Virus record (IMG/VR): IMGVR_UViG_2874945390_000010
Location: 1-42,776 of that record
DNA length: 42,776 nucleotides
Source: a virus
Taxonomy: Duplodnaviria > Heunggongvirae > Uroviricota > Caudoviricetes
Strand: one strand, 5' to 3'
Positions 30,601-36,600 of the stretch are shown here, piece by piece. The first letter of the stretch is position 1. Each line of letters opens with the position of its first letter. The position numbers are program-made.

Positions 30601-33600
30601 ATCATTACCTGCCGGGCGTGCCCGTCGCTGGCCGTTTGAGCATATCTGCACACTGTTACGTGAGCTGGTAAAACATTCTCCCGGCGACTTTGGCTACCAG
30701 CGTTCACGCTGGAGTACAGAACTGCTGGCAATAAAAATCAATGAGATAACCGGTTGCCAGTTAAATGCCGGAACCGTTCGCCGCTGGTTGCCGTCTGCGG
30801 GGATTGTGTGGCGAAGGGCTGCGCCAACTCTGCGTATCCGTGACCCGCATAAAGATGAAAAGATGGCAGCAATCCATAAAGCACTGGACGAATGCAGCGC
30901 AGAGCATCCGGTCTTTTATGAAGATGAAGTGGATATCCATCTTCATCCCAAAATCGGTGCGGACTGGCAACTGCGCGGACAGCAAAAACGGGTGGTCACG
31001 CCGGGACAGAATGAAAAATATTATCTGGCCGGAGCGCTGCACAGCGGGACAGGTAAAGTCAGCTATGTGGGCGGCAACAGCAAAAGTTCGGCGCTGTTCA
31101 TCAGCCTGCTGAAGCGGCTTAAAGCGACATACCGTCGGGCGAAAACCATCACGCTGATCGTGGACAACTACATTATCCACAAAAGCCGGGAAACACAGAG
31201 CTGGCTGAAGGAGAACCCGAAGTTCAGGGTCATTTATCAGCCGGTTTACTCGCCATGGGTGAATCATGTTGAACGGCTATGGCAGGCACTTCACGACACA
31301 ATAACGCGTAATCATCAGTGCCGCTCAATGTGGCAACTGTTGAAAAAAGTTCGCCATTTTATGGAAACCGTCAGCCCATTCCCCGGAGGCAAACATGGAC
31401 TGGCAAAAGTGTAGCGGTATTAAGCGCAGCTATTTAGTTGCCGGATGTTGGTGGATTTTCGCGTTTTAGTTGTTCATAAAAGTGCACAGCTTTAACCAGT
31501 TCTTCTGATGTAACCAGGGCTGGTGAGGCAGTGAATAAGGCCTGAATTTGATAGTTCGGCCTGTCGTTACAATCCTCTTTTTTCGGTACATATTTCCAGT
31601 CAACAGACCACTACTTCTCCTGAAAGTCCGTAACGCCTTTTTTCACGTAGCGATATCGCCATGCCACTGGTTTTGCTTGCCCCGCCGTTTCATACCCTTC
31701 CTGATAATTAATCTCGCTCATTCATCGCCCCACTCATCACAATATGCTTCGACCGGATTTTTTCCTGCTTCATAATCATCACGCCATGCTTCAGCATCAG
31801 CAGCACTGCCACCACGTAACTCTGCATAGTCCATTAACAGTTCATGCCATTTTTCAAAACTGACGTTGTATTTAGTTGAACCAAAATCAGCCATTTTGCT
31901 CTTCCTCTTCGTCTTTTATTTCGTGATATGAGTAATTGCAGTAGTTAAAGAAAATATCTTTTGCTTCGTCATGTATTTCATCAGGCGTCGCATCAGCATC
32001 CACTTCGAATTCATCCTCGAAATCTCCACCAGCCATTCCCGTTTCAATAATTATTTTGAACTTTCGCATTTCACTACCGCCCTTTCGGGTGGCCTCCTGC
32101 TGTTCTGAGGGTGCAGAAATCCCTCCGGTTAAGGATTAAATTTTTAACAGTGCTAAACAGTTTTGGATTTTGTCACCCTGCGTATCCGCGCTTTCCCGTT
32201 ACGCTCAATCTGAATTAGCTTTTCTATATTTTTTCGCCTTTCCCGTTCCTCCTGGCGCAAGAGCCTTACATCATCTGCCAGTCTGGTTTCTCTTTTCGCC
32301 ACAGAGAGCATCCAGTCAAATGGCTCCACAACTGCACCGCAGATTTTACAGCGGACCTGACGCTCTTTTTCGTCAACCCGGACAGAAGCGTGATGGCAAT
32401 ATGGTCTTTCCGATGGCTCATAAAGAAAATTAACCTGATTACGAGGGTCATCCTCTTTTATCGGAAATAAAACGATATTGCTTAACTAATCCTCTGGTTT
32501 TATTTCCATGCTCCTCTCCTTTGATGCGAATGCCAGCGGCAATTGAAGCCTGATAGCTAATTTCACTCACAGTACCGCCTCCTGAAAATTACCCTGATAG
32601 AAAGCCAGTACACGCTGCATAGCTTCGCTCTTCCGGCACTCGCGACAGATTATATTCAGGCGCCTGTCGTAGCGGCGTATTTCTCCGTCTGGTAATGACC
32701 AGATTAGGTCCGGATCAACCGCAGATGGTTTCTTCGGCTTTGCCCTTGAGAGCTTTTTACGGGCATTTTGCCAGTCCTTACGCGCCTGTTCAGACGGGAA
32801 TAACCCGTAACCAGAGTTGTATACATCGCCACTGGCAACCAGCTCTCTGGCCAGAACGCTCATCAGATATCTTGTTGCCCCAGTTTTAGTTTCCAGTTGT
32901 CGTAACGTCTCGCGCCCACTCTGGCGTACGAGTTCAACAACCTGCCCTTTAATTTTTTCCCGCTCTTCTTGTGTAAAAACTTTTGCCACAAGCCCTCCTG
33001 AAAATTACCTCATGACCAGAAATTAACACTTACCCCCTGAAGCCCGGCGGAATTTCGTTATCCGGTTCAGAAATATGATTCACACAACGCTGGTTGTTCG
33101 TGCCGCTTACCGGGAGCAACCAGGGGTTCTCAAAATTCCGGTCCGGTCCAAAAAACGTCGTCGCTCGCTGAACAAATTCCGTTCCCGTTTTCCCGGTAGC
33201 CGCCAAGTATCTTGCGTAACGCCTCACGCCATCCAGCATGGCCTCTGGTGGCACCCCCTCGCGTAATCTGGCCTTCCAGGCACTGAAAGCGGATTTCTTC
33301 GGGTTTGCTCCGGCACGCAACGGGTACTCCCGCCAGACCTGTTCGAACACATCCGGATAATCCACTCGTCCCACAGACTGCCCGGTGTTTTCCGGGACTA
33401 CCCGATCGGCTTCCCGCTGAATGGCGGAATCGGCTTCGGGCTGCTGCAGTTGGTGTGATTGCTCCGGCCTTGCGGTCATCACCTGCTGCACAGCGCCCGA
33501 ATCGGCTTTCAGCGCATACGCTGAATCGGCTTCCGGTGTCGTGCCTGCTGGCTGACCAAGATTGACGGTCTGAACATCCCCTGCCTGGTTCGTGGCGTTT

Positions 33601-36600
33601 TTTACGCCATGGACCATAGTGTTTTGATCTTCTTGATCTGTATCTTTATCTGTATCTTTATCTGTCGTGACTCGTCGTGACATGTGCGTGACATTTCGTG
33701 ACGCGCCGTGACAATCGCCATTTTGTTCCCGCTTTCTTTCCCTCTCTCGCTGCGCCCTCTTGCACTCTGCAGGAGATTTTGCGGTTTGCGAAATATTGCC
33801 GTTGTCCTCTTTAAGCACCTGGCGTTTTTCCCATCCAGTGATTAAATCACCATCAAGTACCCGCCCCTGCATCGTCTGCAAAATTGAATCAATTACCTCT
33901 TCTGTCACGTCGAGCGCACTTGCCAAATCTTCTGTCGTGACATCAATGTGACCTCGCGTGACATTTCGTGACGCGCTCACCAGGAGGTGGATATACACTG
34001 CCATCACTGTTGCAATTGGCTGCCCTGACACCCTGGCAATTGTTCGCCACTTAGGGTCATTTGGCATGTCATGCCATAATCTGAGCCAGGCGTTAGCCAT
34101 ACTCACCTCTTTTGATACCGAATCTTTTTACTCACAAATTGCCGGAAGTGATCCGGTATGAATATTGCGAGTCAATGCACAGCCACAATATTTCCTGCAG
34201 GGCCACCACGATTCATCTGGTTGAAACCAGCGATCGCCACTGCGACAAAATCATCAGCGTCTCTCACCAGTCGTTCCCGCGTCTCCACTAGTTCCCGAAA
34301 ATAGGCTGAGCTATGACTGCGCATTCGGGCCACCAGCAGAGGTGGCATTGCTTTTTCGATAGCTGGTAACAACGCCTGAATTTTTTTAACCGCATCAGGG
34401 GTGTCTTTCTCCACCCAGCGGAAAATTTTCTGAGTATTGCGAGCCAGGGCTTCCGGATGGCTGTCGTCATACAGTTCCGGGAACGTCATTCCCAGCTCGA
34501 AATACGCTTTGGTAATTTTCGCAGCCGGTACTTTTTCGCCGTCCGGATGCGCCCAGGCATTCATCGCCATGCGGATGTGTTCATGCTTGATTTTCATGAA
34601 TCAACTCCCATCAGCTTTTTCGTAGTAGTTTTATTCCTGCCAATAGTTAAAATTGCATCGGCAGAAAATAATCCGTTTGATGCAAGAGCGATTTTTTCAG
34701 CGTAATTTGTTTCGCCGGTATATTCTGTGCGAGGCAATTTTCCGTTATCCATCCATTTATAGATTGCTCTTTGGCTGACACCACAAACGTCGGCCACAAC
34801 AGCAACGCGAACAGTTTTGATTACATCTTCAAGTGTTTTCTGGTTCATATCACCCTCACAATGTGAACTTTGAGCACACGCCATAACAGAACTGACAGTA
34901 CATTCAAGAGCGAATATCATTGAACTTATGGTTCATGAAGATAAAGCGCGTAAAGAGTTCGCCAGTAGGCTTGCGCTAGCCTGTGAAAACGCTGGTTATG
35001 AACAACATGGAAGGCAGGCAGAAATTGCCCGTCGAATGAAATTAACACCAAAAGCGGTTAGCAAATGGTTTAATGGCGAAACAATTCCTCGCCGGGAGAA
35101 ATTAAGGGAATTAGCAACACTAATAGGAACAACACCAACCTATCTTTTGGGAGAGGATACAGAAGAAAGTGGACAGGTACGTTTCTATCAGGAGTTAAAT
35201 CCAAGACAAAAAATCATCATTGACCTTCTGGACGAGCTCCCTGACAGTGAGACAGATGAACTTTTAAAAACTCTTGAAGAGAAAAAACAGAAGTACAATG
35301 CAATTTACGAAGAGTTAGCACGAAAGAAAAAACAAAAAGCCTCTTAAACCAGCATAAATCCGGTAGCGCCTTCCTCCGGGTTTGTGCTTCACTTTATCCC
35401 ATCTCATTTTTTTACACACAAAATGTACTAAAAGCACCTTACAACAATGAACGCAAAGTACATTATATACCTGCCACCCACCCCGCCCCACAGAATGCAG
35501 GGCAATACTTCGAGTTACCAGGCAGTGGTCAGGAGTTAAGTAGCCAGCCCGAGGCGTAAGAACATGACGGCAGGGTTCAACTTTAATAACTATGCAGCAG
35601 GTTTTTGTTCCGCTACCCCGGCGTTAAGGGGAAATGAGGTCAGCATGGATACTATCGATCTTGGCAACAACGAATCTCTGGTGTACGGCGTGTTTCCCAA
35701 CCAGGACGGCACCTTCACCGCAATGACGTATACCAAAAGCAAAACGTTTAAAACCGAATCTGGAGCGCGTCGCTGGCTGAAAAGAAATTCAGGTGGGTGA
35801 TATGGATTTCGACACAATCATGGAAAAGGCTTACGAAGAATACTTCGAAGGCCTTGCCGAAGGCGAAGAAGCTCTCAGCTTCAGCGAATTTAAACAGGCG
35901 CTTTCCAGTTCGGCAAAATCTAACGGCTGATAAGCGAAACAGCACCGCGAGGAATCAGCGTGCAGAAACGAGAACCCGTCATCATCGCGCCAGACTATAC
36001 CGATGATGAACTTTATGAGTGGATGCGCCAGAAAATTAATGCAGCGCAGGATCTGAAATGGGCTAATGAAGCCAGGGCTAAGCAGGCTGAAAATCTGTCC
36101 GCTCTGGAGCAGGATATCACCAATCTGGAAAAAGCAGCGGCATTAAGCATTGCCAGAATGATTACATACCCGCGTTAGTAGCTAATCAACAAAGCTAAGG
36201 TTAGTAATTAAGGAGTTCTCCACGGGTGAGGTGGAGTGCGTGCGCCGGACACGGGTGAGCATCCGGCACTGACAGTTTACTGAAAGGATATTTCCCTGAA
36301 AAGTCAGACCATAACGCGAAAGCGCACGGCGAGGTAGCTGGTTCATAGATAGCCTGTCGTTAAATTTTCGTCGACCGTGCGCTTCCGGTTGTGGCAATCC
36401 GCGAAATGGCGCGGCGGTAAGTATGGCGGGGTTATTCCTTCCCCCGTTGAGGACACCGGGTTGTCAGGTTGACCATACGCTTAAGTGACAACCCCGCTGC
36501 AACGCCCTCTGTTATCAATTTTCTGGTGACGTTTGGCGGTATCAGTTTTACTCCGTGACTGCTCTGCCGCCCTTTTTAAAGTGAATTTTGTGATGCGGTG

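Follow-up and report, generated by a model that had tools for sequence, protein, structure and literature searches.

In phage lambda, the replication origin ori-lambda sits midway within the O gene, and two iterons and the AT-rich region are enough for unwinding, additional iterons tuning the efficiency (PMC7466680). Gene 38 of phage SPP1 contains the origin oriL, which comprises AB-box repeats and an AT-rich DNA-unwinding element (DUE) and to which G38P binds (PMC5737612); as read here, the gene 38 DNA carries ~11-bp repeats followed by AT-rich tandem repeats in mid-gene. In plasmid pSK41, the Rep boxes are central in rep, where the segment encoded by the origin is a dispensable linker; the N-terminal domain (N-domain) of Rep binds four Rep boxes and the C-terminal domain (C-domain) makes contact with replication proteins of the host, each domain being similar to DnaD (PMC5703833). 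Here we analyze a 42.8-kb stretch of viral DNA, IMG/VR record IMGVR_UViG_2874945390_000010, positions 1 to 42,776 (the window), which is an Escherichia coli lambdoid (Qin/DicB-like) prophage. Positions 33586-33972, comprising phased repeats, an AT-rich tract, and a palindrome, are most probably the vegetative (theta-type) replication origin of this prophage, situated inside the gene of its own initiator.

As the arrangement is a textbook one, the conceptual advance is modest. We found no description in the literature of these repeats, of the origin of this family, or of "DnaT-like" phage proteins, and papers on the Eru classification of replication modules in Shiga toxin (Stx) phages make no mention of origins or iterons. 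What the analysis offers is a testable assignment of an origin and of initiator sites for a module that RefSeq labels "hypothetical protein."

Phased repeats and an AT-rich tract within the initiator gene

The initiator ("replisome organizer") gene occupies 33030..34100 on the minus strand and encodes 356 amino acids from the RefSeq ATG at 34100; the version in the list of open reading frames (ORFs) spans 33030-34106, with a GTG start at 34106 and 358 amino acids. Its product matches PHROG 3729, "replication initiation protein," over the full length (E 5e-257), and the C-terminal half has further PHROGs matches to the "DnaD-like helicase loader" and "primosomal protein" families. The identical gene in RefSeq is the hypothetical protein WP_001262357.1, and "phage replisome organizer" is the name given to close relatives by other sources, NCBI included.

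Two arrays of a single hexamer lie within this gene. Cluster B (33666..33712, minus strand) consists of five direct GTCACG repeats in gene sense, seen on the plus strand as CGTGAC starting at 33666, 33676, 33687, 33697, and 33707 (spacing 10, 11, 10, and 10), and encodes a disordered linker, amino acids 130-147. Cluster A (33936..33972, minus strand) consists of four direct GTCACG-type repeats 10-11 bp apart, one of which is GTCACA; on the plus strand, CGTGAC starts at 33936, 33957, and 33967 and the one-base variant TGTGAC at 33947 (spacing 11, 10, and 10). Cluster A encodes amino acids 43-55 (ASRNVTRGHIDVT), the loop preceding a helix-turn-helix. A single inverted copy is found on the plus strand at 33904..33909, which in gene sense places it 32 bp downstream of cluster A. 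In the ORF product, cluster A corresponds to the stretch SRNVTRGHIDVTT and cluster B plus the tract beside it to SRNVTHMSRRVTTDKDTDKDTDQEDQ.

The density of the repeats is far beyond chance, with 9 CGTGAC/GTCACG hexamers in 310 bp versus 0.13 expected (Poisson P ~3e-14). Counted on both strands of the whole window, the hexamer occurs 27 times versus 18.2 expected; the other 18 copies are scattered at chance level, and the same count reveals no second array elsewhere in the 42.8 kb. The direct cores are 6-7 bp long (GTCACG[C/A]), recur with a 10-11-bp period, and have no internal dyad. Across the arrays, the hexamer falls into each of the three frames, as GTC ACG (VT), G TCA CGA (SR), and GGT CAC (GH), which indicates a repeat of the DNA and not of the peptide.

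Directly adjoining cluster B, the promoter-distal one of the two arrays, is a 45-bp AT-rich tract (33620..33665, minus strand), purine-rich on the coding strand, which reads ACAGATAAAGATACAGATAAAGATACAGATCAAGAAGATCAAAAC in gene sense and encodes DKDTDKDTDQEDQ. Tandem Repeats Finder identifies a 12-bp unit, TCTTTATCTGTA, repeated 2.9 times at 33631-33665. The GC content is 27.5% at 33620-33659 and 27-30% across the tract, which contains the least stable 40-mer of the gene and of positions 31500-36500 (nearest-neighbor free energy [dG] of -43.4 versus a window mean of -55.4; z 2.8). The tract is the putative DUE. The initial annotation had described two CGTGAC clusters with helical spacing beside an AT-rich tandem repeat, all within the coding sequence of the initiator, and the positions given above, every one of which falls inside the minus-strand ORF matching PHROG 3729, bear this out. 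It had also taken a DKDTDKDTD segment of the protein as the reflection of the CGTGAC repeats; this segment is instead the translation of the AT-rich tract, and the repeats appear in the protein as SRNVT...VT.

Immediately after the tract comes an imperfect palindrome with 13-bp arms (33586..33616, assigned to neither strand; TGGTCCATGGCGT aaaaa ACGCCACGAACCA in gene sense), whose DNA fold has a dG of -8.7 kcal/mol (z -3.6). The palindrome is possibly part of the origin; in ori-lambda, too, a palindrome flanks the AT region. Shigella phage 75/02 Stx retains it, the pair that closes the loop having changed in a compensatory manner. When the family was tested for a GC-rich hairpin after the AT-rich tract, 10 of 48 loci were individually significant, a result that is ambiguous because many of these hairpins encode PPxPPxG, the codons for Pro and Gly being complementary. 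A scan for sigma-70 promoters and terminators gave nothing that exceeds the shuffled expectation, and the one terminator-like match is the palindrome at 33586-33616 in an antisense-strand reading.

The locus holds the features by which an iteron-type theta origin is generally recognized, namely, at least three phased direct repeats and an unwinding-type tract, with a PHROGs-assigned initiator in cis. DnaA boxes (TTATNCACA, with at most one mismatch) are absent from 33085-34127, and their window-wide count is at chance. Such boxes are not obligatory in phage origins.

Conservation of the element and alternative explanations

To compare the element among relatives, one genome per species was scanned with an N-domain alignment, yielding 59 loci from gamma- and betaproteobacteria and a few other phyla, with 33-69% GC and 40-99% N-domain identity; a few Acidobacteria-type metagenome-assembled genomes are among the relatives. 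This set replaced a scan of viral contigs with the N-domain, whose 80 near-identical E. coli prophage copies were useless for covariation. In ~25 relatives from gamma- and betaproteobacterial species with 34-69% GC, GTCACG is present at the identical ORF offsets of 128, 138, 148, and 159, and 15 of the 27 GTCACG-type genes listed have the inverted copy, at ORF offset 191. Cluster B in relatives comprises three to six copies with a 10-bp period at ORF nucleotides ~370-430. Family-wide, 64 spacings in cluster B are of 10 bp and 8 of 11 bp, and the corresponding numbers for cluster A are 46 and 22; the distance from A to B ranges from 240 to 350 bp. The 4.5 kb of flanking DNA contains only 0-5 copies.

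The constraint extends to codon choice, as seen in 27 distinct GTCACG-type genes. Codons in cluster A are fixed or nearly so (V47 as GTC in 26/26, T48 as ACG in 26/26, G50 as GGT in 26/26, H51 as CAC in 26/26, and V54 as GTC in 26/27), and the inverted-copy codon V65 is GTG in 22/22. The normalized synonymous-codon entropy is 0.10 for the 8 conserved codons in repeat cores versus 0.82 for the 35 other conserved codons (Mann-Whitney p 8.6e-6), and four different codons are in use at the spacer residue R49. Frozen synonymous sites in the repeat cores imply selection on the DNA and not on the protein. As a separate observation on cluster A, the Escherichia albertii locus (L085; protein P0017) has a 21-bp insertion at gene nucleotides ~148-180 that amounts to two repeats and adds seven residues (TCHGVSL) to the winged-helix loop, so a change in repeat number is tolerated inside the coding sequence of a folded domain.

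More distant relatives lacking GTCACG have GTAACG (6 loci) or CGAACGC (at least 12 loci) instead, nearly always with the same motif in both clusters, and all motif classes have the ACG(C) half in common. With at least three such classes, the motif could predict replication incompatibility or cross-activation between coresident prophages. The tract is likewise retained. In nearly all relatives, AGATAAAGATAAAGA-like purine-rich units begin within 2-3 nucleotides of the last repeat, and across 48 loci, the 30 nucleotides after the last repeat average 33% GC versus 56% for the ORF and are 75% purine. The AGATAA(A)GA units persist while the frame and the peptide differ (DKDTD, DKIREE, RLDKRRVDK, and QIREEEIIK), and since the tract is kept as the encoded peptide varies, it is a DNA-level feature. 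Comparison across this wide family thus indicates that both arrays and the tract are under purifying selection at the level of the DNA. Fixed repeat offsets, frozen synonymous sites, the joint switch of motif, and a tract after the last repeat together strongly support the proposal of the initial annotation that an origin is embedded in the initiator gene.

The element also travels as a unit. Whereas the window prophage has both arrays and the tract, with a DUF977/Ren-like gene and no loader gene downstream, Pseudomonas phage 5399 combines an N-domain of 69% amino acid identity, both arrays, and the tract with a different C-domain and a downstream Toprim plus DnaB_C primase-helicase. Shigella phage 75/02 Stx, in contrast, has a different N-domain and no GTCACG arrays but the same C-domain (64% identical), followed by a DnaC/IstB-like ATPase. 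DNA homology to N-domain relatives stops at gene nucleotides 458-471 (window ~33630-33642), inside the AT-rich tract, and homology to the C-domain relative begins at gene nucleotide 471; the palindrome belongs to the C-terminal module. The N-domain/origin module is joined to at least three C-domains, those of the window type, the DnaT DNA-binding domain, and the Pseudomonas phage 5399 type. The breakpoint within the tract and the swapped C-domains imply that the N-domain, both arrays, and the tract form one module, similar to the specificity modules of N-domain plus iterons of the lambda type. In the Shigella phage 75/02 Stx locus (L002), we also observe a purine-rich (GAACAG)n tandem repeat (QEQEQE...) between the domains at ~2455-2510, with the palindrome again coming next; an origin of another type may have its equivalent element here.

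Several points weigh against an origin at this site. Initiator binding, unwinding, and origin firing are all inferred from sequence. Because the initiator gene contains the repeats, it is to some extent a given that the two occur together, and the initiator, not some other factor, is taken as the repeat binder because the N-domain is the only constant partner. Three relatives (L120, L124, and L140) lack cluster A yet retain cluster B and the tract, so array A is not essential to the family, and seven distant relatives (L110, L114, L129-L132, and L139) have no obvious repeats. Last, the integrase and an exonuclease gene are frameshifted in a 99.8%-identical prophage of another strain, and by this token the copy in the window may be defective.

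The alternative that fares best divides the element. Cluster B with the AT-rich tract would be the origin proper, and cluster A, outside the minimal origin, would have an auxiliary or regulatory role as a looping enhancer of O-some assembly, in titration, or in negative control. Such a division, which we hold to be possible rather than probable, accounts for the three relatives in which cluster A is missing although cluster B and the tract are present and for the variable distance between the arrays, and it has a parallel in lambda, where unwinding needs two iterons and the AT region and extra iterons modulate efficiency (PMC7466680). However, synonymous conservation in cluster A is as strong as in any element, and its motif changes with that of cluster B, which argues for selection to bind the same factor.

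It is unlikely that the arrays are cis-acting sites with no part in an origin, serving autoregulation, an early-operon roadblock, copy control by handcuffing, partition or packaging, or another phage or host protein. Cluster A has no AT-rich tract of its own, plasmid iteron arrays also act in negative control, and terminase or partition sites, too, can be short phased repeats. Yet the pairing of the last repeat with an unwinding tract in nearly all relatives, and its location in an interdomain linker, match three proven origins (PMC7466680, PMC5737612, and PMC5703833). Loci with shared arrays differ in their neighboring genes, and the window is devoid of any other array.

Far less probable still is that the repeats are a DNA shadow of a repeated peptide (SRNVT...VT and DKDT) with no role in cis. 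ASRNVT and VT peptides do recur in both cluster regions, and SRNVTRGH is nearly invariant in close relatives. Under this explanation, however, the hexamer should not occupy all three frames, nor should the cores show frozen synonymous sites next to freely varying codons at other conserved positions; the part of the protein encoded by cluster B and the tract is predicted to be unstructured, the DNA of the tract is retained despite different frames and peptides, and the motif switches in both clusters together. Least credible is a recombination hotspot for shuffling of N- and C-modules that is kept for evolvability and not for replication: it would suit the homology breakpoints inside the tract and the joining of one N-module to at least three C-modules, but evolvability cannot explain frozen synonymous sites, the 10-bp phase, or the covariation of two arrays, and module junctions are the expected by-product of a low-complexity linker at origins.

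Initiator domains, proposed mechanism, and genomic context

The N-terminal winged-helix domain of the initiator (amino acids 1-95; coding region 33816..34100, minus strand) is the presumed iteron-binding domain. An AlphaFold2 model built on a 70-sequence alignment is confident for amino acids ~4-95 and shows three helices, a loop at amino acids 46-55 with a dip in the predicted local distance difference test (pLDDT) score, a helix-turn-helix at amino acids 56-77, and a beta-hairpin wing; the pLDDT is <50 for amino acids 131-155, which are thus disordered. The model is a winged helix close to the N-domains of DnaD and of pSK41-type RepA. These fold similarities are generic for winged helices, and a Foldseek search with the model returned nothing significant.

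Sequence searches place few landmarks on the protein. A Pfam search of the whole initiator found no family at E<=0.01, and the DnaT tail is the sole family match when NCBIfam and Pfam are considered for the whole protein. With the two halves searched separately (E<=10), only weak HTH_Crp_2 and Phage_rep_org_N matches appear; the latter (PF09681) covers profile positions 1-114 of 121 at 15.2 bits, below the cutoff of 23.3. Queried with the protein and the two family profiles, the PDB sequences gave the DnaT tail alone, and comparison of the family profile to SPP1 G38P by hhalign detected no homology (probability 0.04).

The last 117 amino acids (33033..33383, minus strand) comprise a small helical domain and then a disordered tail ending in ISEPDNEIPPGFRG, and they are presumably the end that recruits a helicase or loader; the identity of the C-domain's partner is a guess. 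A search for C-domain homologues yielded mostly fragments and frameshifted translations, and, after cleaning, an alignment of 11 sequences yielded a model that is shallow yet usable, the best match of which is a DnaD-like C-domain. The tail, NQRCVNHISEPDNEIPPGFRG (last 24 codons, 33033-33104), closely matches the C terminus of E. coli DnaT (PDB 6aep, 2ru8, and 9zbt_D; NCBIfam NF002770), and relatives with unrelated C-domains have the same ...PD..IP.GFRG tail. Its appearance is that of a transferable short linear motif directed at some replication partner in the host; no binding partner or role of the DnaT tail is described in PMC5778457 or PMC13377028. Between the origin and the C-domain, at 33405-33536, there are also four GAAGCCGATTC-like 11-mers in gene sense, arranged as two 36-nucleotide units 96 bp apart. 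They are in frame with 8-codon spacing and encode EADSA, KADSG, EADSA, and EADRV, and the homologue from Shigella phage 75/02 has similar 11-mers encoding EADS-type peptides.

These parts suggest the following course of events. After induction, transcription of the rightward-operon type through the cro-like, YdaT/CII-like, and initiator genes on the minus strand would supply the initiator, and its DnaD-like winged helix would place one monomer on each repeat along a single face of the helix. Once cluster B (five sites) and cluster A (four sites plus the inverted one) were filled, the arrays, 260 bp apart, might be bridged into an O-some-like complex, and the filled arrays would stress and melt the adjoining AT-rich tract on supercoiled DNA. 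The DnaD-like C-domain and the DnaT-like tail would then recruit host DnaB-DnaC, or the primosome; recruitment of host DnaB-DnaC is proposed because no helicase or loader is encoded next to the initiator.

The position of the signals in the gene bears on how DNA and protein coexist. As cluster B and the tract specify a disordered linker and cluster A a surface loop, a DNA signal can dictate the peptide there, and the locus would provide a natural example in which selection on DNA overrides codon choice and dictates the peptide inside a folded domain. The residues that discriminate GTCACG-type from CGAACGC-type N-domains are, except for amino acid 31, those encoded by the repeat copies (amino acids 45-48, 51-52, 55-56, and 65), and the remainder of the folded N-domain is common to both types. 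One conceivable reason is that cluster A is self-referential, in that the specificity loop (amino acids 44-56) would recognize sites of which its own coding DNA is an array. Any shift in origin specificity would in that case be constrained by the two readings together, a possible explanation for the small number of motif classes. We consider this doubtful and favor a reading in which conserved parts of the domain recognize the shared ACG(C) half-site and concerted evolution of the repeats carries the loop residues along as passengers, since L120 and L124 keep cluster B with divergent loops.

In the window, the minus-strand genes are ordered as cro-like helix-turn-helix, YdaT/CII-like, initiator, DUF977/Ren-like, small ORFs, hokD, DUF968, RusA, and antiterminator, and the cI-like repressor gene is on the plus strand, divergent from this early operon. 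No P, DnaC, or DnaB gene is annotated from the initiator to the antiterminator gene. The immediate neighbors of the initiator are a DUF977 gene (PHROG "Ren-like exclusion protein") at 32567-32989 and a YdaT-family gene at 34172-34597, the labels of which conflict (Pfam "YdaT_toxin" versus PHROG "CII-like transcriptional activator"). Many E. coli genomes contain a 99.8%-identical region, the 2.9-kb region is covered to at least 80% in 328 of 5,426 complete E. coli genomes, and the N-domain is encoded in at least 580 IMG/VR stretches.

Comparison with lambda, SPP1, pSK41, and DnaT

The likeness to lambda O and ori-lambda, and to Stx phages 933W and P27, is one of layout. In each, the origin is in the middle of the initiator gene and the repeats add residues to the protein; as in lambda, the repeat array adjoins an AT-rich unwinding tract with the repeats promoter-proximal, the N-domain and the origin form one specificity module, and the gene follows cro/cII-like genes. 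The lambda ori arrangement put forward in the initial annotation therefore stands as far as iterons and an AT-rich tract within the initiator gene are concerned, but the description of the gene as O-like does not. The initiator has no sequence homology to O (no match to Pfam Phage_rep_O), and whereas the iterons of lambda are imperfect palindromes of 19 bp to which dimers bind, those described here are 6-7-bp direct cores with a 10-11-bp period. The window also differs in having a second array within the coding region of the DNA-binding domain and in lacking a P-type loader gene next to the initiator. The protein, which is not a lambda O homologue, is probably of the "phage replisome organizer" type, with putative DnaD-like domains.

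E. coli DnaT is similar in a different respect. The last 22-24 residues of the initiator (...NHISEPDNEIPPGFRG) match the DnaT C terminus, and the Pfam DnaT DNA-binding domain is the C-domain of several of its relatives. The window protein, however, matches in the tail only, and DnaT has neither a sequence-specific domain for binding double-stranded DNA nor an origin.

SPP1 G38P/oriL shares more of the design: the organizer is encoded by the gene that harbors the origin, which is placed between the N- and C-domain regions and has short direct repeats followed by an AT-rich DUE. Like the initiator here, G38P is not an AAA+ initiator; it is known as a "replisome organizer," and the present family, named "phage replisome organizer" by NCBI, has the weak full-length match to Phage_rep_org_N. 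In contrast, G38P is undetected by hhalign and the Pfam match is subthreshold; a loader (G39P) and a helicase (G40P) are encoded by SPP1 itself, whereas the window prophage has neither; and oriR is far off in the SPP1 genome, whereas the second array here is 260 bp away in the same gene.

The pSK41 Rep protein (RepA_N) has DnaD-like N- and C-domains and a central linker encoded by the origin, a design to which the fold models of the window protein may correspond. The two differ in that there is no Pfam RepA_N match here, the phage is from a Gram-negative host and the plasmid from Gram-positive bacteria, and the repeats are of different sequence and number; the window gene also has a further array where the N-domain is encoded, and its product ends in a DnaT-like tail. 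The closest analogues of the prophage system are SPP1 G38P/oriL and pSK41 RepA, although it belongs to neither the O nor the RepA_N family. The solution found in lambda, SPP1, and pSK41, an origin placed in the interdomain linker of its initiator, thus appears to recur in a further family with DnaD-like domains.

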